From Acidimicrobiales bacterium (lineage in GTDB: Bacteria; Actinomycetota; Acidimicrobiia; Acidimicrobiales; SZUA-35): a stretch of 53,842 nucleotides of DNA. Numbering within the stretch: the stretch's first letter is position 1; every line of letters begins with the position of its first letter. The position numbers and the translations under genes are program-made. The DNA is taken from contig JAHELU010000001.1 in NCBI GenBank assembly GCA_024644005.1, forward strand, positions 1-53,842, read 5' to 3'. Below, piece after piece: positions 17,670 to 50,630 of this stretch. The notes beneath the pieces were generated by a model. It saw only the letters and a list, made by a program, of their open reading frames with translations. It was not told where the DNA came from and did not search any database.

Positions 17670-19085
17670 GTGAAGCGGTACCACCTCCGAACCTACGGCT
17701 GCCAGATGAACGAGCACGACTCCGAGCGCATCGCCGGACTGCTCGAGGCCGACGGGTACGAAGCAACGCCGTCGCCGGAGGCGGCAGACGTCGTGGTGCT
17801 CAACACCTGCTGCATCAGGGAGAACGCGGACAACAAGCTCTACGGAGCGCTCGGCAACCTCAAGGCGCTGAAGCAGGACAAGCCCGACCTGCAGATCGTG
17901 GTGGCGGGCTGCCTGGCCCAGAAGGACAGGGACCTCATCCGGGAGCGAGCCGGCCACGTCGACGTGGTCTTCGGCACCCACAACGTGCATCGGGCCGCCG
18001 AGCTGCTGTCGGAGGCCCGTCGAGGTGGCCCGATCACCGAGATCTGGACCGAGGCCATGGTGGGGGAGGCCGAGGCCTTCCCATCGGCCCTGCCGGCCAA
18101 GCGGGAGACGGACCACGCAGCCTGGCTCACTATCCAGATCGGCTGCGACAACGCCTGCGCCTTCTGCATCGTCCCGTCGGTCAGGGGCGCCGAGATCAGC
18201 CGCCCCTTCGTCGAGATCGTGGCCGACGCCCGGGACCTCGCGGCCCGGGGCGTCACCGAGGTGACCCTGCTCGGACAGAACGTGAACTCCTACGGTCGTG
18301 ACCTCGCCCTGGCCGCCCGCCGCCAGGGTGAGCCCGTGCGGGTCCGGCCCCGGTTCGGCCAGTTGCTCCGGGCGGTCGGGGCGATCGAGGGCTTGCGCCG
18401 GGTCCGGTTCACCAGCCCCCATCCCAAGGACATGACCGCCGACGTGTTCGAGGCCATGGCGGCGACCGAGACCGTGGTCGATCACCTCCACTTCCCGCTG
18501 CAGTCCGGTTCCGATCGGGTCCTGGCCGCCATGCACCGTGGCTACACCGGTGCCCGGTACCTGGAGAAGCTGGCCGCGGCCAGAGCGACGATCGACGACC
18601 TGGCCGTCACCACAGACATCATCGTCGGCTTCCCTGGCGAGACCGAGGACGACTTCCAGGCCACCCTCGAGCTGGCCGCCGAGGCCGGGTTCGACAGCGC
18701 CTACACGTTCGTCTTCTCCCCCCGGCCGGGAACCGAGGCGGCGGAGCTGGTGGACCAGTTCTGTGATCCGGACGAGGTCAAGGACCGGTACGCCCGCCTC
18801 AGAACGGTCATCGAGCGGTCGGCCCTCGCCCGGTACCGGGCCAGGATCGGGCTGGTGGAGGAGGTGGTCGTCGAGGGACCGTCGAAGAAGGACCCGTCGC
18901 TGCTGACCGGGCGAACCGCCCACAACAAGCTGGTCCACTTCGCCTCGGCACCGTTGCGGCCCGGGACCTATGCCACCACCCGCATCACCGACGCCGCTCA
19001 CCAGTACCTTCGGGGAGAGCTGATCGAGGTGACGGCCAGGCCGGCCCACCGCACCAGGATCCCGGTGGCCGCCGCCGGGCGCTAG
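17670..19085 (+). CDS. miaB: tRNA-2-methylthio-N6-dimethylallyladenosine synthase
   Basis: Begins MKRYHLRTYGCQMNEHDSE, with the radical-SAM motif GCDNACAFC. Confidence 0.93.
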   Translation: MKRYHLRTYGCQMNEHDSERIAGLLEADGYEATPSPEAADVVVLNTCCIRENADNKLYGALGNLKALKQDKPDLQIVVAGCLAQKDRDLIRERAGHVDVVFGTHNVHRAAELLSEARRGGPITEIWTEAMVGEAEAFPSALPAKRETDHAAWLTIQIGCDNACAFCIVPSVRGAEISRPFVEIVADARDLAARGVTEVTLLGQNVNSYGRDLALAARRQGEPVRVRPRFGQLLRAVGAIEGLRRVRFTSPHPKDMTADVFEAMAATETVVDHLHFPLQSGSDRVLAAMHRGYTGARYLEKLAAARATIDDLAVTTDIIVGFPGETEDDFQATLELAAEAGFDSAYTFVFSPRPGTEAAELVDQFCDPDEVKDRYARLRTVIERSALARYRARIGLVEEVVVEGPSKKDPSLLTGRTAHNKLVHFASAPLRPGTYATTRITDAAHQYLRGELIEVTARPAHRTRIPVAAAGR

Positions 19086-19246
19086 CGCCCCGAGTCACAA
19101 GTCGTGCTCATGTTTCGACGGCTCGTTTCGCCCCTCGCAGCGTCCTCGTCGTTGCCTCACGCTCACGAGTGAAGCTGCCTCCTGCGTCCTTGCGAGGGAC
19201 GAAGTCGCTCGCCGAAATACTGAGCGAACTCATGACTCGGGGCGCT
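19084..19246 (-). repeat. Nested imperfect-palindrome element, copy A (candidate structured RNA / REP-like element), inverted relative to copy B
   Basis: 14-bp closing helix AGCGCCCCGAGTCA (19084-19097) / TGACTCGGGGCGCT (19233-19246). Inner helix CCCTCGCA / TGCGAGGG. The reverse complement carries CAAGGACGCAGGA...CAGCTT...GTGAGCG...CGAGGACGC, collinear with 49283-49451. Confidence 0.7.
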
Positions 19247-20570
19247 GGGGCCTCGCCTCGGCCCGGTCGAGGCGCTCGCCGGCGGCGAGCACCGCGCTCA
19301 CCACCGTCGCCGGATCGGCGAGCGGGTTGGCCGCCACCGATCGCAGCCATGTCCGACCACCGATGTCGACCGTGGACACGACGGCCCCGGCCAGCTCGGC
19401 CCGTATCGCCGCCGACCCGTGGTAGCGGTGGCGCCAGGCGACGACACCGCTGTGGTTCGGGCCGAATCGGGCCAACCGGGGCTCGGCGTCGATCAGCTCG
19501 ACCAACCGGTCGGCCACGGCCATCCCGTGGTCGACGAGTCCTTCCACGCCATCGAGGCCGAGGGCGAGCAGCGTGGCCGCCAGCGGGGCGGCCGTGGCGC
19601 CGTGACTCCCGAGCAGCCCGAGGTTCGGGACCTGGAGGTAGGCCTCGTCGACGCTGACCGCCCGGTGGGCCCGTTCGGCATCCGCGAAGAGGACGACCGC
19701 CGATTCCTTCGGCTGGAACAGCCACTTGTGGGCCGACACGGCCACCGAGTCGGCTCGACCGATGCCGTCGAGCCGGTGCCGGTGGCGCCGGGAGAACCGG
19801 AGCGGTCCGGCCCATGCGGCGTCGACGTGGAGCCATGCCGGCCGGTGGGCGCCCGCGCCCGGGTCGAGCTCGTCGATGGCCCCGGTTCCCGTGGTGCCGG
19901 CGGTGGCGACCAGGATCGTCGTCCGGGGATCCAGCGCCGTCCCCCCGCCGCGGCCCGACGACCCGGGTGCTGAGCGGGCGAACCGGTCCGCGACGTCGGC
20001 GGCCGACAGCGCACCGTCGACGGTCGGTTCGATGGCGGCGTAGCGTAGCCCCAGGATGGCCGCAGCCTTGCGGATCGAGAGATGGCTGGACGTCGAGGCT
20101 GCCACCGTCGAGGCACCGGTCAGCTCGCGCGCCGCCCACAGGGCGGTCAGGTTGGCCACCGTCGAGCCCGGGACCAGGTGTCCGCCGGACATGGCGAAGA
20201 CCGGGCTGAGCCAGTCGACGACGCGCCGCTCCAGCTCCCGGGCCGCCGGAGCGGTGTCGGGATGGAGCAGGTTCTGATTGGTCGACGCCGCGAGCAGCGT
20301 CGCCACCCAGGTCGGCCACGGCGTCGGTGGGTCCATGTGGGCGAGGAAGCCCGGGTCACCCAGATCGCGGGCAGCGCCCCGTACATAGGGCGTCACGAGG
20401 GCCAGGGCCCGTTCCGCCCCGACCCCGGGGCCAGCGAGGCGGCCCGGCAGCTCGAGTGTCGTCGCCTCGTCGGACAGCGCGGCGGCCACCGCCGCGGCCA
20501 CGGCCTCGGGCTCGGCCCGGAACAGCGCCCGCAGATCCTCCGCCAGTACGTGGGGTGGTTGGTCGTTCAT
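19230..20570 (-). CDS. PLP-dependent (group II) amino-acid decarboxylase family protein
   Basis: 446 aa. The PLP-lysine context is SAHKWLFQPKESAVVLF. The substrate is not inferable. Confidence 0.8.
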   Translation of the reverse strand: MNDQPPHVLAEDLRALFRAEPEAVAAAVAAALSDEATTLELPGRLAGPGVGAERALALVTPYVRGAARDLGDPGFLAHMDPPTPWPTWVATLLAASTNQNLLHPDTAPAARELERRVVDWLSPVFAMSGGHLVPGSTVANLTALWAARELTGASTVAASTSSHLSIRKAAAILGLRYAAIEPTVDGALSAADVADRFARSAPGSSGRGGGTALDPRTTILVATAGTTGTGAIDELDPGAGAHRPAWLHVDAAWAGPLRFSRRHRHRLDGIGRADSVAVSAHKWLFQPKESAVVLFADAERAHRAVSVDEAYLQVPNLGLLGSHGATAAPLAATLLALGLDGVEGLVDHGMAVADRLVELIDAEPRLARFGPNHSGVVAWRHRYHGSAAIRAELAGAVVSTVDIGGRTWLRSVAANPLADPATVVSAVLAAGERLDRAEARPQRPES

Positions 20571-36099: not shown

Positions 36100-36573
36100 G
36101 TGCGGTGTCCGATCTGTCAACTCGCCGAGACGAGGGTCATCGATTCCCGTTCCGCCGATGATGGTGCAGCCATCCGGCGACGCCGGGAGTGCAGCTCCTG
36201 CCAGCGCCGGTTCAACACGTTCGAGCGGATCGAGGAAGCGCCGATCGTGGTCGTCAAGCGCTCGGGCGAGCGCGAGCCGTTCGACCGTGAGAAGATCGGC
36301 CGTGGCCTGCTGGCCGCTTCCAAGGGGCGGCCGGTTGACGGCAACGATGTCGAGCGACTGGTCTGCGGCGTCGAAGAGGAGGCTCGGCTGCTCGGCGGCG
36401 AGGTGACCTCGGAATGGGTCGGGTTGGCGGTGCTCGAGCGGCTGCGGTCGCTTGACGAGGTGTCCTATCTCCGGTTCGCCAGCGTGTACAAGTCCTTCAC
36501 CGACGTCGACGACTTCGAGCGCGAGGCCAGGCTGATCAAGCTCGACGGAGGCGAGGCAACGACCCGTCCGTGA
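36100..36573 (+). CDS. nrdR: Transcriptional repressor NrdR
   Basis: Zinc ribbon (V)RCPICQ...CSSCQRRF followed by an ATP-cone. Confidence 0.93.
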   Translation: MRCPICQLAETRVIDSRSADDGAAIRRRRECSSCQRRFNTFERIEEAPIVVVKRSGEREPFDREKIGRGLLAASKGRPVDGNDVERLVCGVEEEARLLGGEVTSEWVGLAVLERLRSLDEVSYLRFASVYKSFTDVDDFEREARLIKLDGGEATTRP

Positions 36574-36584
36574 CCGCCGGTCCC

Positions 36585-36705
36585 GAGCTCTCGATCCGAG
36601 CCTCCTAGCCGAGCCCGCTGACTGAGCCTGCGATCCGGAGCTCTCGATCCGAGCCGGCTAGCCGAGCCTGCTAGCCGAGCCTGCGATCCGGAGCTCTCGA
36701 TCCGC
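36585..36705. repeat. Direct repeats in the nrdR / reductase convergent gap (53-bp period)
   Basis: GAGCCTGCGATCCGGAGCTCTCGATCC occurs at 36624-36650 and 36677-36703. GAGCTCTCGATCCGAGCC occurs at 36585 and 36639. CTAGCCGAGCC occurs three times. Confidence 0.8.
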
Positions 36706-36720
36706 CTGCGCCTCCGGACC

Positions 36721-41713: not shown

Positions 41714-43342
41714 CTACGGCAACGGCAGGAAGTTGTTGCCCTGGTAGGTCTGCAGGGGGTTCAGCCTGGCGAACATCCGGGCGGTGCCGGTCTGACCGTA
41801 GGAGCAGTTCCTGGCGCGCTTCATGCAGCCGTTGATCCACAGGTCCATGGCGTCGTCGTTCCAGCCGCCGAACCAGTCGGCATGCAGGGTTGCGCCGGGG
41901 CCGGTGTTGAAGCCGTTCGACCGGTCGGACGACAGGTACCACCCGTTGGTGTTGCCAGCCGGGAAGTACACGAGGATGGAGATCTGGGGGAGTCGGACCG
42001 GATGGCTCCCCGGGCACGACTGGTTGTCGTTGACGTAGGTCATGTGGGAGGAGTGGTCAGGTGCGTCCAGGTTCTTGCCGTCCCAGCAGAACGGGAACTG
42101 GATGTAGAAGTTGACCGGATCGCTGCCGCAGTTGTTGGGAATCCGGTTCGACTTGTTGTACGACGTGCCGCTCGGCCCGCAGGACCAACCGAGCTTGTAG
42201 TCGGCGGTGAAGGACTCCTTGGTCGGGTTGCCGGCGATCATCTTCAGGCCTTGGGGCATGCGCTGGACCTCGCCGGGATGCTTGGTCTTGTAGTAGAGGA
42301 TGATCTGGTCCGGCACGACCGCATTGCCCTTGCCGTCGAGCAGCGCCGGGGTCCAGTAGCCCGAGCGGTTCAGCTCGAACCCGTTGCAGCTGCCGCCACC
42401 GGAGTTGACCAGGCTGTTGGTCGTGGTGTGGGCGTTGACCTTCGTGTTGCCGAAGAACATGTGGAGGTGCGACTTGCCGGGCTGGCCGGGGAAGACGATC
42501 GGATCGTCGTAGGAGAAGTGGGAGTAGTTGCAGGCCATCCGGAAGTTGCCGTCGGGATGGGCGCCGTTGTCCGGCACCGGGGCCGGGATGGTGAGCGCAT
42601 CCATGCTGATCTGGCTCGCCGGGACGTTCTCGTACCGGTTGAACAGCGGGTCCCGGTTGCGGATCGCCTCGAACTGGGCTTCGGTGCCCTTGCTGGCCGG
42701 GGCCGCCGGAGGGCTGGTGGTGGGGGCGGCGGTGGTCGGGGCTTTGGTTGTCGGGGCGGCGGTGGTGGGGGCGGCGGCTGCGCCGGTTGTGTTGCTCTTC
42801 GCCGCCGTGCCGGCTGTGGTCTCTGCCGCCGTGCCGGCTGTGCTCTCTGCCGCCGTGCCGGCTGTGGTCTGGGCGGCCGTGCCGGCTGTGGTCTCTGCCG
42901 CCGTGCCGGCTGTGGTCTGGGCGGCCGTGCCGGCGGTGCTCTCTGCCGCCGTGCCGGCTGTGCTCTCTCCCGCTGCTCCGGCAGGGGCCGGACCCTGGCC
43001 GGGCAGCCGGGCGGAGCCGTCGACGAGGCCGGTGATCCCGTTCGCCGAGATCGAGGCCGGCGAATCGGCCGGACCATCGAGGCCGCCGCCGGCGGAGCCG
43101 ATCGACTGCCCGACGTCGGCCCGCACGACGAGCGGGTCCCCGCTGTTGCCGGCACCGGGCAGGTCCAGCGAGGGCCCGACGTCGCCCGCAGATGACGATT
43201 CCGTGGCGAGGGGGGCGGAGGCCGTCTCGATCCGTTGGCCGTCCTCGAGCTCCTGCCCCGACGAGTCGACGACGACGAGGGTCAAGGTCAATCCTGCGGT
43301 GAATGCCACACACAGTGCGGCCAGTCCCGAGCTCGGTGACAT
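41714..43342 (-). CDS. Secreted/anchored DUF1996-domain protein with Thr/Ala-rich repeat linker
   Basis: Signal-anchor MSPSSGLAALCVAFTAGLTLTLVVV. Repeat (A/E/Q)(S/T)TAGTAA x7. C-terminal domain with YDDPIVFPGQPGKSHLHMFFGN. GGGGAAGG is the RBS before the ATG at 43342. Confidence 0.75.
   Translation of the reverse strand: MSPSSGLAALCVAFTAGLTLTLVVVDSSGQELEDGQRIETASAPLATESSSAGDVGPSLDLPGAGNSGDPLVVRADVGQSIGSAGGGLDGPADSPASISANGITGLVDGSARLPGQGPAPAGAAGESTAGTAAESTAGTAAQTTAGTAAETTAGTAAQTTAGTAAESTAGTAAETTAGTAAKSNTTGAAAAPTTAAPTTKAPTTAAPTTSPPAAPASKGTEAQFEAIRNRDPLFNRYENVPASQISMDALTIPAPVPDNGAHPDGNFRMACNYSHFSYDDPIVFPGQPGKSHLHMFFGNTKVNAHTTTNSLVNSGGGSCNGFELNRSGYWTPALLDGKGNAVVPDQIILYYKTKHPGEVQRMPQGLKMIAGNPTKESFTADYKLGWSCGPSGTSYNKSNRIPNNCGSDPVNFYIQFPFCWDGKNLDAPDHSSHMTYVNDNQSCPGSHPVRLPQISILVYFPAGNTNGWYLSSDRSNGFNTGPGATLHADWFGGWNDDAMDLWINGCMKRARNCSYGQTGTARMFARLNPLQTYQGNNFLPLP
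42801..42968 (-). repeat. 24-bp in-frame tandem repeat x7 inside the DUF1996 gene
   Basis: Units of GCCGCCGTGCCGGCTGTGGTCTCT and variants start at 42801 and recur every 24 bp. Confidence 0.9.
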
Positions 43343-46607: not shown

Positions 46608-47525
46608 GTGAGCGAGGATGCTCGATCCGAGAGGTCGCGAGGAGCCGGTGAGCCCCACCGGTTCTCGGTGGTGGACCTGACCGTGCGCAACGGGGTGGCT
46701 GTCGCCGAGATCGACAACCCACCGATCAACCTCATCACCCCGGAGCTCTTCGGTGACCTCCGGGCCCTGCCGGACCGGGTCGAGAACGACGACGACGTCC
46801 GGGTACTGGTGCTGCGCAGCGCCAACCCGCAGTTCTTCATCGCCCACTACGACGTCGAGCAGATCCTGGCCGCCCCCATCGACGGCACGCCGCGACGGGG
46901 GACCGAGCTGCGGGGCTTCCACAGGATGTGCGAGCGCTACCGGACCATGGCGGTGCCGACGATCTGCGAGATCGACGGCCGGGTCGGGGGAGGAGGGGGT
47001 GAGCTGGCGGCCTCGTGCGACATGCGGTTCGGCACCGTCGCTGGCACCGTGCTGTGCCAGATGGAGGTCCCGATCGGCATCCTGCCCGGTGGCACGGGCA
47101 CCCAGCGACTGCCCCATCTGGTCGGCCTCGGTCGGGCGATGGAGATCGTGCTCGCAGGCGACGACATCGACGGCGCAACCCTGGCCCAGTGGGGCTGGCT
47201 CAACCGGGCGCTGCCGGCCGGCGAGCTTCGGGCCTTCGTCGACGACCTGGCGGCCCGCATCGCCGGCTTCCCGCCGGAAGCGGTGGCCCGGGCCAAGGCC
47301 TCGGTGCTGGCCGCCACCGCCGACCCGACCGACGGCCTGCTGACCGAGGCCTTCCTGTTCCAGGAGACGCTGCGCTTCCCGTCGGCCCACCAGCGGATGC
47401 GGGCGTTCCTGGCCGCCGGCGGCCAGACGGTGGAGGGCGAGCTACGGGTCGGGGCGATCGCCGGGGAGTTGGGGCCCGACCCGGAATCCGATTCCGGGAC
47501 CGGGCCAGGGGCGGCCGCGCCATGA
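46608..47525 (+). CDS. Enoyl-CoA hydratase/isomerase (crotonase) family protein
   Basis: VAEIDNPPINLIT...VLVLRSANPQFFIAHYD. The GTG at 46608 follows GGGAGG. Confidence 0.8.
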   Translation: MSEDARSERSRGAGEPHRFSVVDLTVRNGVAVAEIDNPPINLITPELFGDLRALPDRVENDDDVRVLVLRSANPQFFIAHYDVEQILAAPIDGTPRRGTELRGFHRMCERYRTMAVPTICEIDGRVGGGGGELAASCDMRFGTVAGTVLCQMEVPIGILPGGTGTQRLPHLVGLGRAMEIVLAGDDIDGATLAQWGWLNRALPAGELRAFVDDLAARIAGFPPEAVARAKASVLAATADPTDGLLTEAFLFQETLRFPSAHQRMRAFLAAGGQTVEGELRVGAIAGELGPDPESDSGTGPGAAAP

Positions 47526-49255
47526 TCGATCGCGAGCGGCGAGACGAGATCGAGCGGTGGATCCGCATGGACGCCGAGTACGGCGACGAGCTCCGGCGCC
47601 TGCTGGAGGAGGATCCGGCCGAGGCGGCGCGGTTGTTCGACGGCAGGATCGCCTTCGGCACCGCAGGACTCCGGGCGGCGATGGGGCCGGGCCCCCGGCA
47701 GATGAACCGGTTGGTGGTGCAGCAGACGACGGCCGGGCTGCTGCGTTGGCTCCCCCCGGAGCCGACCGTGGTGATCGGCTACGACGCTCGGTACCACTCG
47801 AAGCGGTTCGCCGACGATGTGGCGAGGATGGTGGCCACGGCCGGCGGCCGGGCCGAGCTCGTCGATCAGCCGGCCCCGACGCCGGTCCTCGCCAGGGCGG
47901 TGCTCGATCGGGCTGCGGACGCCGGGGTCATGATCACGGCCAGCCACAACCCGGCCGCCGACAACGGCTACAAGCTCTACCTCTCGGACGGGCTCCAGCT
48001 GGTCGACCCGTCCGACGGCGAGATCGCCGCCCTCATCGACCAGGTGGCGGCGGGCCCTGCCCCCGCTCTCGGTGACGGCGACGGCGAGCCCCCGATCGAC
48101 ATCGGCGCCGAGAGCCTCGAGCGCCATCGAGCCGTGGCCGTCGAGGCCCTGCTGACCGGTCACCGCGAGGTCTCGGTGCTCTACACCGCCATGCACGGGG
48201 TCGGGGGCCGCCACCTGCTGTCGTGCTTCGCCGCAGCGAGGTTCCCGCCCCCGGCGGTGGTCGCCGATCAGTTCGAGCCGGATCCCGACTTCCCGACGGC
48301 TCCGTTCCCCAATCCCGAGGAGCCCGGCGCGTTCGACCTGGCCTACCAGCGCGCCGCCAGCATGGCCGAGGGCGACCCTCGATCGCCCGTCGACATCATC
48401 CTGGCCAACGATCCGGATGCCGATCGGCTGGCCGTCGCCGTGCTCGACGACGAGCAACGGTGGCGTCGGCTCAGCGGCGACGAGGTCGGGGCCCTGCTGG
48501 CCGATCACGTGCTGCGCCACCGAACCGGTCGGGGCGACCCGACCGACGACGGGACCGAGGAAGGGGGCGACGGGACCGAGGAGGGGGCCGGCGGAACGTC
48601 TCTGGTGGCGTCGTCGATCGTCTCGTCCCGGTTCATCGACCGCCTGGCCGACGCCTATGGGGCCGAGAGCATCCGGACCTTGACCGGATTCAAGTGGGTG
48701 GCCCGGCCCATCGTCGATCGGCCGGAGGATCGCTACCTGTTCGGCTACGAGGAGGCCCTCGGCTACTGCATCGGCGATCGGGTCAGGGACAAGGACGGCA
48801 TCAGCGCTGCGCTGGTGATGGCCGAGCTGGCAGCCGAGTGCATCGCCACCGGCACCACGGTCTGGCAACGGCTCGGCTCGCTGATCGAGCGCCACGGGCT
48901 GTACGCAACCGCCCAGGTGACCGTGGGGATCGGTGACCTCGACGACGCCCGTCGGGTGGCCGTCATGCAGCGAGCGGTCGATCTCGACCCTGGCGACATC
49001 GCCGGCACACGGGTCGTCGAGCGGGAGGACCTGTCGAAGGGGGAGCGGTTGCCGCCGACGGCCGGGGTGGTGCTCCGCCTCGAAGACGACAGCCGGGTCA
49101 TCGTCCGCCCCAGCGGGACGGAGCCGAAGATCAAGGCCTACCTGGAAGTGGTGGAGCCGGGGGGCCCACCGGGTTACGCGAGCGAAGCCCGGCGACGGGC
49201 CGGGCTCCGGCTTCGGGATCTCGAGGTTGCGGTGACCGGACTGCTCGGCAGCTGA
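47522..49255 (+). CDS. Phosphomannomutase/phosphoglucomutase-family phospho-sugar mutase
   Basis: Active-site loop TASHNPAADNGYK. ATGA overlap with the crotonase gene. Confidence 0.88.
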   Translation: MIDRERRDEIERWIRMDAEYGDELRRLLEEDPAEAARLFDGRIAFGTAGLRAAMGPGPRQMNRLVVQQTTAGLLRWLPPEPTVVIGYDARYHSKRFADDVARMVATAGGRAELVDQPAPTPVLARAVLDRAADAGVMITASHNPAADNGYKLYLSDGLQLVDPSDGEIAALIDQVAAGPAPALGDGDGEPPIDIGAESLERHRAVAVEALLTGHREVSVLYTAMHGVGGRHLLSCFAAARFPPPAVVADQFEPDPDFPTAPFPNPEEPGAFDLAYQRAASMAEGDPRSPVDIILANDPDADRLAVAVLDDEQRWRRLSGDEVGALLADHVLRHRTGRGDPTDDGTEEGGDGTEEGAGGTSLVASSIVSSRFIDRLADAYGAESIRTLTGFKWVARPIVDRPEDRYLFGYEEALGYCIGDRVRDKDGISAALVMAELAAECIATGTTVWQRLGSLIERHGLYATAQVTVGIGDLDDARRVAVMQRAVDLDPGDIAGTRVVEREDLSKGERLPPTAGVVLRLEDDSRVIVRPSGTEPKIKAYLEVVEPGGPPGYASEARRRAGLRLRDLEVAVTGLLGS

Positions 49256-49282
49256 GGCGCCGAGCGCTGCGAGGCCGTACGG

Positions 49283-49451
49283 CTAGCAGGGTGCTGAAGA
49301 TCGCCGTTGAGGTTCTCGGAGGCCAGGCGCCGCCCAGTCAAGGACGCAGGATTCGCCACAGCTTGTGAGCGCTATGGCGAATTCGAGGACGCAGAGTGGG
49401 CGGATGGATGGCCTCCGAGAATCCGACATGTGATTTTCAGCACCCTGCTAG
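49283..49451 (+). repeat. Nested imperfect-palindrome element, copy B (candidate structured RNA / REP-like element)
   Basis: Helices: 49283-49298/49436-49451 (16 bp), 49313-49324/49410-49421 (12 bp), 49330-49336/49397-49403 (7 bp) and 49351-49358/49375-49382 (8 bp). Two AGGACGCAG copies lie at 49341 and 49386. Confidence 0.7.
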
Positions 49452-49534
49452 TTGCGGCCGACGGTCGGCTTGCGGCCGTGGTTGGCCTTCTTGCGGCGGG
49501 CCAGGAGCCGCTTCTTGCGTCTGCGCTTCGACAT
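49448..49534 (-). CDS. Ribosomal micro-protein, bL37-like (28 aa)
   Basis: The reverse strand encodes MSKRRRKKRLLARRKKANHGRKPTVGRN. The basic ANHG(K/R)(R/K)P core matches my recollection of actinobacterial bL37. It is below the ORF-track size cutoff. Confidence 0.6.
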   Translation of the reverse strand: MSKRRRKKRLLARRKKANHGRKPTVGRN

Positions 49535-49541
49535 GGGTGCC

Positions 49542-49547
49542 AGGGTA
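49542..49547 (-). promoter_or_regulatory. -10 box TACCCT, 7 nt upstream of ATG 49534 (leaderless-type)
   Basis: The reverse strand reads cTACCCTggcacccATG. Confidence 0.45.
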
Positions 49548-49592
49548 GCGGCCGACCGGTCGATTCGGTCCCCGGGGGCCGGTGGTCGGCTG

Positions 49593-50630
49593 TCAGCGGT
49601 TGCAGAGGGCGAGCAGGTCGTCGGCGGTGCGCGTGTTGATGATGCGCTCTGGCTCGATCCCCAGCTCGGCGGCCCGGTCGCAGCCGTAGTTCACCCACTC
49701 GAGCTGGCCCGGCGCATGGGCGTCGGAGTCGATGCTGATCCGGCAGTCCCACTCGCAGGCCAGTGCCAGCAGCTCGTCCGGCGGATCCTGCCGCTCGGGT
49801 CGACAGTTGATCTCCACGGCGGTGTCGAACCGAGCGCAGGCGGCGAACACGTAGTCGGCGTCGAACGTCGACGGCTTGCGGGGCTTGTTCAGCACCTTTC
49901 GGTTCGTGCAGTGACCGAGGATGTCCACGTGCGGGTTGGCCACGGCGGTCACCAGCCGGCGGGTCATCTCACGCTCGGGCTGGTGGATCTTGTAGTGGAC
50001 CGAGGCCACCACCACGTCGAGCCGGGCCAGGAGCTCGTCCGGCAGGTCGAGGGTGCCGTCGGCCAGGATGTCGACCTCCATCCCGGTGAGGATCCGGAAC
50101 GGGGCCAGCTCTTCGTTGAGGGCCTCGATCTCCACCAGCTGGTCGGCCAATCGCTCCGGCGACAGCCCCTTTGCCACCGTCAATCGGGCCGAGTGGTCGG
50201 TGGCCACGAGGTACTCGTGACCGAGGGCCATCGCCGCCTCGGCCATGGCCCGCAGCTCGGCGCCACCGTCGGACCACGTCGAGTGGGAGTGGCAGTCCCC
50301 CTGCAAGCGTGCCCGCAGCTCGGCCCCGGGACCGAGCGGGACCTCGGTCGACGCCTCCAGCCCGTCGAGGTAGGCGGTCGGCCCCGCCCCGTATGCCCCC
50401 CGGACCACGGCATCGATCGACGGGCCGATGCCGTCGAGGGAGCTCAGCCGACCGGCGAGGGCCAGCCGCTCGACGTCGCCCGGGTCGAGACCGTCGAGGA
50501 TCGTCCGGCCCCTGAGGAAGGCCCTGACCTTCTGGACGGGTGCGAGGTCGCGGTCGAGCAGGTAGATGACGCGGTCCAGGGCCTGCCGGTAGGGGGCGGG
50601 AGAGGAGTCGGCCGATGCGGTCTGCGCCAC
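49593..50630 (-). CDS. PHP-domain phosphoesterase with N-terminal helix-hairpin-helix region (PolX-like, without polymerase domain)
   Basis: Motifs CHSHSTWSDG, VATDHS and ILGHC. I prefer the GTG at 50630, which has a -10 box 7 nt upstream. The track start at 50720 is also possible. Confidence 0.75.
   Translation of the reverse strand: MAQTASADSSPAPYRQALDRVIYLLDRDLAPVQKVRAFLRGRTILDGLDPGDVERLALAGRLSSLDGIGPSIDAVVRGAYGAGPTAYLDGLEASTEVPLGPGAELRARLQGDCHSHSTWSDGGAELRAMAEAAMALGHEYLVATDHSARLTVAKGLSPERLADQLVEIEALNEELAPFRILTGMEVDILADGTLDLPDELLARLDVVVASVHYKIHQPEREMTRRLVTAVANPHVDILGHCTNRKVLNKPRKPSTFDADYVFAACARFDTAVEINCRPERQDPPDELLALACEWDCRISIDSDAHAPGQLEWVNYGCDRAAELGIEPERIINTRTADDLLALCNR

Follow-up and report, generated by a model that had tools for sequence, protein, structure and literature searches.

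In well-studied bacteria, small mobile palindromes (Correia, RUP, ERIC and REP) influence gene expression and the plasticity of the genome. ERIC/IRU of enterobacteria and bcr1 of the Bacillus cereus group are imperfect whole-length palindromes of 120-160 bp, which are found in transcribed intergenic regions and have orientation-dependent effects. The predicted RNA structure of bcr1 is backed by compensatory changes. bcr1 uses TTTAT, and ERIC has no clear duplication. Correia copies are similar in sequence and possess conserved TIRs of ~26 bp. In the sections of PMC2229807 that concern these elements, Correia/NEMIS of Neisseria are described as ~100-155 bp in length, with TA ends, many copies and an IHF site in the center; they are transcribed into hairpins that are cleaved by RNase III, altering neighboring mRNAs. 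RUP is described there as a 107-bp pneumococcal MITE, which has TA targets and is thought to be mobilized by IS630-Spn1 (PMC2229807).

Acidimicrobiia and Thermoleophilia are abundant soil and water Actinomycetota, which are mostly known through MAGs. No comparable element for these two classes was found in Rfam, in the literature searched, or in plasmid and phage collections. We analyzed a stretch of 53,842 nucleotides from an Acidimicrobiales bacterium (the window), which contains two related palindromic elements, copies A and B. They probably belong to a previously undescribed family of small, non-autonomous, MITE-like mobile elements of ~165 bp in Acidimicrobiia and Thermoleophilia. A first-pass annotation of the window had noticed both palindromes; absent from it were the mobile insertion with TA/CTAG ends and an empty site, and the dispersed multi-copy family in two actinobacterial classes. 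The interest of the family rests on its breadth across two under-studied classes and on a pattern of conserved shape plus core, which could reflect an unusual mobilization or a mobile structured RNA.

Limits, Parts and Fold of Copy A

Copy A and the genes on its two sides comprise the following features.

47522..49255, + strand: phosphoglucomutase/phosphomannomutase-family (PGM/PMM) gene, convergent with the small basic protein gene
49283..49451, + strand: copy A, the complete element with both flanking CTAG, 169 bases (from the fold and the empty-site alignment)
49283..49286, no strand: left junction CTAG, the target TA plus the element's first base G (from the sequence, the empty site and the family ends)
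49339..49351, + strand: 5' core repeat CAAGGACGCAGGA (from pattern counts and the family alignment)
49351..49382, + strand: central hairpin ATTCGCCA / TGGCGAAT, variable and covarying across the family
49384..49392, + strand: 3' core repeat CGAGGACGC, which repeats the 5' core in direct and not in inverted orientation
49448..49451, no strand: right junction CTAG, the element's last base C plus the duplicated TA (from the sequence and the empty site)
49448..49534, - strand: small basic protein gene, product MSKRRRKKRLLARRKKANHGRKPTVGRN, conserved in five related genomes

The span from TA to TA is 49284-49450 (167 nt). The outer arms, 49283-49325 and 49409-49451, are 43 nt each and 81% complementary, and TCAAGGACGCAG and TCGAGGACGCAG are direct repeats with a spacing of 45 nt. 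The four helices and the two copies of AGGACGCAG reported in the first-pass annotation had all been located correctly. The element had further been placed between two gene stops. The convergent gap is as proposed, but the stop of the small gene (49448-49450) lies inside the terminal CTAG of the element: the right junction, read on the - strand, gives the TAG stop of this gene, which we take to be bL37-like. Its product did not match any NCBIfam model. The 28-aa basic protein (window 49452-49534, loci L124-L127) is conserved as a protein in five related genomes, and its gene is downstream of a PHP-domain gene every time. The PHP-domain protein gene is a neighbor of copy A, and its homologues led to the syntenic loci, all of which have the order PHP gene, small basic protein gene and convergent PGM/PMM gene.

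The + strand of copy A folds at -135.5 kcal/mol (z = -13.0; none of 200 shuffles was as good), and it is the lowest-energy 200-nt stretch of the entire 53.8-kb, 70% G+C window. The - strand folds at -110.4 kcal/mol only. When 49150-49600 was scanned for terminators, nothing was called and no U-tract terminator was found, which bears out the earlier view that the element is not a plain intrinsic terminator. A sigma-70-like promoter was not predicted in or beside copy A. Rfam at the gathering score gave no match over the whole window, in agreement with the earlier statement that no known RNA motif could be recognized. With Rfam 15 at E up to 10 or 1, three copies matched only plant miRNA-hairpin models, far below the threshold.

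A fold asymmetry was also observed elsewhere in the window, at 42681-42880 (-122.8 on the + strand vs -70.8 on the - strand). At 42715-42973, the + strand contains G/T-rich tandem repeats (period 24, 7.2 copies, GCCGCCGTGCCGGCTGTGGTCTCT), which are preceded by repeats of period 15/30. These repeats probably correspond to a low-complexity Ala/Thr/Gly-rich linker encoded on the - strand.

Copy B and Its Comparison with Copy A

The second copy and its flanking genes are as follows.

17670..19085, + strand: miaB, with the TAG stop (19083-19085) inside the terminal CTAG of copy B
19082..19248, - strand: copy B, the older copy, in which CTAG is intact at the right end and degenerate at the left (from the fold, the shared core and the CTAG position)
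19140..19192, - strand: core of copy B, CAAGGACGCAGGA at 19192-19180, hairpin, CGAGGACGC at 19148-19140 (from the sequence)
19230..20570, - strand: pyridoxal-dependent decarboxylase gene, the last ~five codons and the stop (19230-19232) of which are encoded by the left arm of copy B

The homology of this copy had been recognized before, and it proved to have the same architecture and the shared core CAAGGACGCAGGA-hairpin-CGAGGACGC. Its location and its reverse strand were as claimed; its limits, given as 19084-19246, are really ~19082-19248. The right end is CTAG at 19082-19085, and the left end is CCAG at 19245-19248. The - strand of copy B folds at -110.7 kcal/mol (z = -7.2) and the + strand at -100.7 kcal/mol.

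The arm identity between copies A and B is 0.59. CAAGGACGCAGGA, GTGAGCG and CGAGGACGC are common to the two copies, as had been reported; however, GTGAGCG and CAGCTT, another of the blocks listed as shared, belong to the central hairpin, which is variable in the family. ORFs that open with GTGAGCG encode unrelated peptides in the two copies, and the family does not conserve this segment, in agreement with the earlier view that the element is not a peptide gene. The pattern AGGACGC-N30-50-AGGACGC occurs exactly twice in the window, in copies A and B (expected, 0.02).

Both copies in the window are placed between convergent genes. The miaB ORF of the window is two codons longer than that in relatives without copy B. 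The stop of the decarboxylase gene sits 15-17 nt inside the left arm of copy B, and the distance from the miaB stop to the decarboxylase stop is 144 nt in the window vs 19-30 nt in relatives at 84-86% identity.

Insertion History

An exact empty site of copy A was found in the related genome GCA_041609355.1 (L125), in which the PHP protein is 99% identical: AACTAG is directly followed by CCGTACGG. Thus, L125 reads AACTAGCCGTACGG, whereas the window reads AACTAG, the insertion CAGGGTGC...GCACCCTGCTAG, and then CCGTACGG. In the longer context, GGCCGCAACTAGCCGTACGGCCTCGC of L125 corresponds to GGCCGCAACTAG, the same insertion and CCGTACGGCCTCGC in the window. The difference between the two is exactly 165 bp, and CTAG is present twice in the window vs once in L125. 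Copy A is also missing from three relatives at 81-82% identity. These results show that copy A is a recent 165-bp insertion with TA/CTAG duplication, and that it arrived after the split from the strain with the 99%-identical flanking PHP protein. At this copy alone, the duplication may be TA or the 4-bp CTAG. Over the time scale of strain divergence, the family is active.

Copy B is missing from relatives at 84-86% identity (L150 and L151). It is present at the contig end of the 99% strain (L149), and this contig stops 27 nt into copy B, as assemblies end at repeats. Copy B is older than copy A, and the genes on both sides of it now take their 3' ends from its sequence. The family breaks assemblies (the contig ending in copy B) and rewrites gene 3' ends and stops, here those of miaB and of the genes for the decarboxylase and the bL37-like protein.

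In one genome, MAG083, the arms of three copies (L064, L072 and L106) are 94-98% identical. Two of these young siblings share a contig, and the third is on a different one. Tandem or abutting copies and one nested remnant were present among the listed loci. The remnant, L020 7013-7079, lies directly against a complete copy. It is internally deleted: about 19 nt of the left terminus are joined to the distal right arm, and the core is missing. This arrangement suggests that the terminal TA of a copy already in place serves as an insertion target. Further tandem or abutting copies were observed at L054, L063 and L080, and L008 has three copies in 8 kb.

Distribution, Ends and Target of the Family

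A search for further copies, which had been proposed as a check with the first-pass annotation, was performed as one pass over a species-representative genome collection with the pattern AAGGACGCAGGA-N26-38-GAGGACGC. The core pattern matched at least 120 loci, nearly all in MAGs of Acidimicrobiia and Thermoleophilia. Among the matches listed, the taxa were Acidimicrobiia/Acidimicrobiales, Solirubrobacterales, Gaiellaceae and Conexibacteraceae, and one isolate, Patulibacter defluvii DM4 (L060), was included. The window itself falls among Acidimicrobiales-like Actinomycetota, judging by the proteins encoded beside its two copies. Two matches (L046 and L075) were in MAGs labeled Gammaproteobacteria and Bryobacteraceae. 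The copy at L046 looks canonical and could be due to a mis-binned contig or to horizontal transfer; that at L075 is atypical and may be a chance match.

Since 12 bases of CAAGGACGCAGGA (AAGGACGCAGGA) were fixed by the search pattern, the invariance of the core is partly ascertainment. An nhmmer profile applied to ~1 Mb of the listed loci detected 129 copies, in four of which the exact core was missing, each by 1 nt; this profile is dominated by the core, and its finding of 1-nt core variants only is limited accordingly. In ~1 Mb of related loci, CAAGGACGCAGGA is almost confined to elements, and half-cores elsewhere are rare or due to chance. The lone 5' half-core in L010 was rejected as a chance match at a gene start. 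A second or third copy was present in ~8 of the 120 8-kb loci listed, some of them abutting, which suggests a copy number of tens per genome.

CTAG was found 57-59 nt before the core in 41 of 119 listed copies, and 58-60 nt after the core in 39 of 119. This tetranucleotide is rare in these genomes, with 18 sites in the window. Thirty-six listed copies are bounded by TAG...CTA and have a length of 162-167 nt. A typical full-length copy starts with TA-G(TG), finishes with (CA)C-TA, and is mostly in a CTAG target: 26 of the 36 bounded copies are in C-TA..TA-G, and the other 10 are in other N-TA..TA-N contexts (for example, CTAA, GTAG and TTAC). Immediately beyond the TA, 32 of the 36 have C on the left side and 28 have G on the right side. 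The constant parts are TA-G...C-TA, as expected if TA is duplicated, CTAG is the preferred target, and the element proper extends from G to C. The element has no coding capacity; as the arms and the central hairpin vary freely, a conserved ORF is impossible.

Three of the 18 CTAG sites of the window are in three near-identical direct repeats CCGGAGCTCTCGATCCGAGCC, interleaved with GCTAGCCGAGCCTG, at 36573-36710, just after an NrdR-like gene (~36100-36573). Two further CTAG sites are just upstream of this gene (36068 and 36086). Rfam gave no match on these repeats.

A shorter-armed subgroup was observed in Solirubrobacterales (L008, L010, L022, L031, L087, L091, L095, L098 and L118). It has arms of ~25-45 nt and the core AGGAAGCG-hairpin-GAGCGACCGAGGACGC and is without CTAG ends; the arms often finish in CTGAG/CTGAC-type palindromes. 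Its members are nearly always antisense to co-directional neighbors (8 of 11). This subgroup may be a distinct lineage with different ends, moving differently or not at all.

Conservation of Core and Shape

Arm identity between copies has a median of 0.55-0.57; at about 0.55-0.6, it is no higher within than between genomes for most of the listed copies. For most co-resident copies it is 0.51-0.64 vs a between-genome background of 0.57. By contrast, the arms of each copy (~58 nt) pair with one another: the median own-arm pairing is 0.82, vs 0.61 when the left arm is combined with the right arm of another copy, and 80 of 121 listed copies are above the 99th percentile of this crossed-arm control.

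For covariation analysis, 36 full-length copies were aligned with MAFFT on sequence alone. RNAalifold on this alignment gave 41 pairs, 35 of which have changes on both sides. The share of paired cells was 90.0%; it fell to 62.4% when columns were shuffled and to 34-43% when partners were slid. The corresponding covariation scores were 0.705, 0.203 and 0.10-0.15, and none of 500 shuffles reached the observed values. The terminal helix is 94% paired. That loops are conserved while helices differ and stay complementary had been noticed from two copies; the very strong covariation extends this pattern to the whole family, and the covariation check that had been suggested is answered by the compensatory pairs.

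Position-wise information is high in three places only, which are the core with its closing GGC / (C/A)GCC, the terminal 5-6 bases (CTAGTG ... CACTAG) and a few loop positions (for example, GGCGAG in the left arm). The asymmetric core is C-A-AGGACGC-AGGA ... C-G-AGGACGC and flanks a variable hairpin. In this central hairpin, 117 distinct inner segments were found among 121 listed copies; they still fold, with a median of 9 bp in the MFE fold. Thus, a long imperfect one-strand hairpin, an asymmetric core and 3-5 terminal bases (TAGTG ... CACTA) are kept across the family.

Strand Specificity of the Fold

At opposed positions of the arms on the AGGACGC strand, 577 G.U were counted vs 144 A.C (4:1), and 315 G.A vs 87 C.U (3.6:1). 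G.U exceeds A.C in 96 elements among the listed copies, and the reverse is seen in 9. The excess is present in every gene-orientation class. Furthermore, the AGGACGC strand folds better in 107 of 119 listed copies, with a mean gain of 18 kcal/mol. Some wobbles are kept positionally, U.G at columns 41-133 (18 of 36 copies) and at 16-159. Copy A is very recent and yet already has wobbles; therefore, the wobbles were inherited from a source copy and not gained by decay. A mutational origin of the asymmetry is unlikely, since non-template-strand deamination would predict the opposite sign in the commonest orientation class. Structured RNA and cruciform DNA had both been offered as explanations of the element. 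The former is a live reading in view of the strand-specific fold; the latter is not favored, because a signal at the duplex level would not prefer G.T over A.C on one strand.

Gene orientation was assigned by a codon log-odds caller, which was checked on the window only, where the known genes were reproduced. Most of the 83 classifiable contexts of the listed copies are co-directional, and in these the AGGACGC strand is antisense in 47 and sense in 16 (binomial p ~1e-4); 13 contexts are convergent and 7 divergent. Selection would favor the purine-rich, Shine-Dalgarno-like core antisense to the flanking genes, and the 47:16 bias may reflect selection against a very stable hairpin with AAGGA/AGGA/GAGGA loops in the sense strand of an operon.

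Proposed Mobilization of the Element

The features of a MITE are present: a non-coding length of 162-167 nt, inverted-repeat arms, TA/CTAG flanks, an empty site, dispersed and near-identical copies, and nested or tandem insertions. The element inserts at a TA, preferably within CTAG, which leaves TA (or CTAG) on both sides. With G as its first base and C as its last, it restores a TAG stop codon that it enters, which explains the frequent position of copies against gene ends. Where a gene ends beside the element, the stop codon is inside the terminal (C)TAG in ~40%.

Propagation would depend on a trans-acting protein that duplicates TA. The obvious candidate is a transposase of IS630/Tc1 type, as proposed for RUP and IS630-Spn1 (PMC2229807), or one of IS5/IS427 type, a class assignment drawn only from the TA/CTAG target. 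When the element was compared with a MITE derived from IS630/Tc1-mariner, the TA duplication with CTAG preferred was found, but sequence-conserved terminal repeats among co-resident copies were not, only TAGTG/CACTA being kept. A classical DDE transposase, which binds TIRs, is at odds with arms that are hardly conserved in sequence among co-resident copies. Sequence-based recognition of terminal repeats likewise disagrees with the 3-5 shared terminal bases, the internal asymmetric direct repeats, and a one-strand hairpin that is kept by compensatory, wobble and purine-purine pairs.

Since the arms of co-resident copies are nearly unlike and the fold is strand-specific, it is most likely the folded AGGACGC strand and the core that are read, not a conventional TIR. 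The most economical reading is that the entity recognized or selected is the folded AGGACGC strand with its core loop, as single-stranded DNA or RNA. The free but covarying arms, the strand-specific fold and the invariant asymmetric core suggest either that a folded single strand is recognized or that the element carries with it a function exerted at the RNA level. We tentatively suggest, as a possibility rather than the probable case, that an enzyme inserts the folded AGGACGC strand at a TA by reading its structure; equivalently, the element could be a "selfish" gene for a structured RNA, with transposition as its way of spreading. The target of such an enzyme would be the sequence-free covarying stem and a pseudo-symmetric internal loop of two AGGACGC octamers.

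It is also conceivable, although we consider it rather unlikely, that the element is primarily a structured non-coding RNA gene, from whose AGGACGC strand a ~165-nt hairpin RNA with GGA-rich internal loops would bind a protein or the ribosome, the gene being present in many copies and mobility being only its means of spread. The strong covariation with its kept wobble positions, and the excess of G.U and G.A on one strand whatever the orientation of the neighbors, are in line with an RNA product. So are the invariant core, whose asymmetry would be superfluous in a symmetric site on duplex DNA, and the preferred orientation antisense to the neighbors, which fits an independent transcription unit. 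However, hairpins of single-stranded DNA likewise tolerate G.T and G.A better than other mismatches, so that the asymmetry is no proof of RNA. Copy A has no promoter-like or terminator-like signal in or next to it and no Rfam match, and a near-identical strain does without it, which makes it dispensable. Moreover, the overlap of copies with the ends and stop codons of genes is typical of selfish insertions.

Genomic Context and Search for a Partner

The neighbors of the element are ordinary housekeeping genes, with ABC transporters, dehydrogenases and similar genes recurring. When 877 neighboring proteins were clustered and then searched against Pfam, no transposase or recombinase and no linked gene family was found. 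An autonomous partner, that is, a transposase gene between matching ends, was not found in ~1 Mb of the listed family loci. The only longer element with matching ends in these loci was the nested, internally deleted remnant of L020. BLAST of two copies against plasmid and phage collections gave chance-level fragments only. In a metagenome scan with a 20-mer specific to the arm of copy A, all 20 of 20 matches were due to chance and lay inside unrelated coding sequence. A full-text search of the literature found no description of the element, and only general MITE reviews were relevant.

The placement of both window copies between convergent genes, together with hairpins that are very stable on both strands, would suit a host transcription terminator or an mRNA 3'-end stabilizer of convergent genes that is kept for this function; the same gap in relatives without copy A has a short palindrome (CCACGGTTAACCGTGG in L124). 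We judge this explanation to be very unlikely. A U-tract is absent, only 13 of the 83 classifiable contexts among the listed copies are convergent, and the insertion is polymorphic between near-identical strains. In addition, termination requires no ends flanked by TA and no invariant, asymmetric core of 13+9 nt. Least plausible of all is a site that acts as duplex DNA, either as a cruciform or by binding a protein (for instance, a nucleoid protein or a site-specific recombinase) at the two AGGACGC repeats: the direct repeats are 44-45 bp apart, about four helical turns, and the palindromic flanks could extrude a cruciform, but such a site gives no reason for the four-fold excess of G.T over A.C on one strand or for arms that covary while all sequence identity goes, and no linked recombinase gene was found in the listed loci.

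Several known systems were considered and set aside. 6S RNA is ruled out by a multi-copy, mobile and polymorphic element without an Rfam 6S match. An orientation bias coupled to replication, as for IS608, would by our reasoning predict the opposite polarity and a much weaker gene-relative bias. A sponge for a CsrA-type protein is not claimed, the GGA motifs being its sole hint.

Comparison with Known Systems

Returning to the family as MITE-like mobile elements, the hairpin would be expected, after insertion, to act on neighboring transcripts like other bacterial MITE hairpins, as a 3'-end barrier or as an RNase III substrate. Correia/NEMIS is a plausible model, by analogy, for this downstream effect. 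Unlike Correia, the arms of the present element are sequence-free but covarying, and its center is a pair of direct repeats with strand polarity.

Like RUP, the element is small, non-coding and dispersed, has TA targets and folds into a stem-loop. RUP tends to insert next to or into other mobile elements, and tandem and nested copies were found here. However, RUP is tied to its IS via similar terminal inverted repeats, whereas only 3-5 terminal bases are shared here and the search for a partner IS was negative in the listed loci. The range of RUP is a single species group; that of the present family covers two classes. ERIC/IRU and bcr1 have different ends or targets, belong to other phyla, and are without such an invariant asymmetric core.

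A likeness in manner is seen with integron attC sites and the ends of IS200/IS605, which recombine as a folded single strand. In these, the shape is kept while the sequence is free, one strand is active, and a few invariant bases are read by the enzyme; the present element shows this pattern. Membership of attC was rejected: the ends are TAGTG / CACTA, not the RYYYAAC / GTTRRRY boxes, the element is the entire insertion, and a cassette ORF and intI are absent. IS200/IS605 make no duplication and use subterminal hairpins and tnpA, which are absent here. The resemblance to attC and IS200/IS605 would thus be one of mode of action only, not of membership. If the folded AGGACGC strand is indeed what the enzyme reads, the element, with its TA duplication and without a linked gene, would be an Actinomycetota counterpart of attC/IS200-type single-strand recognition.
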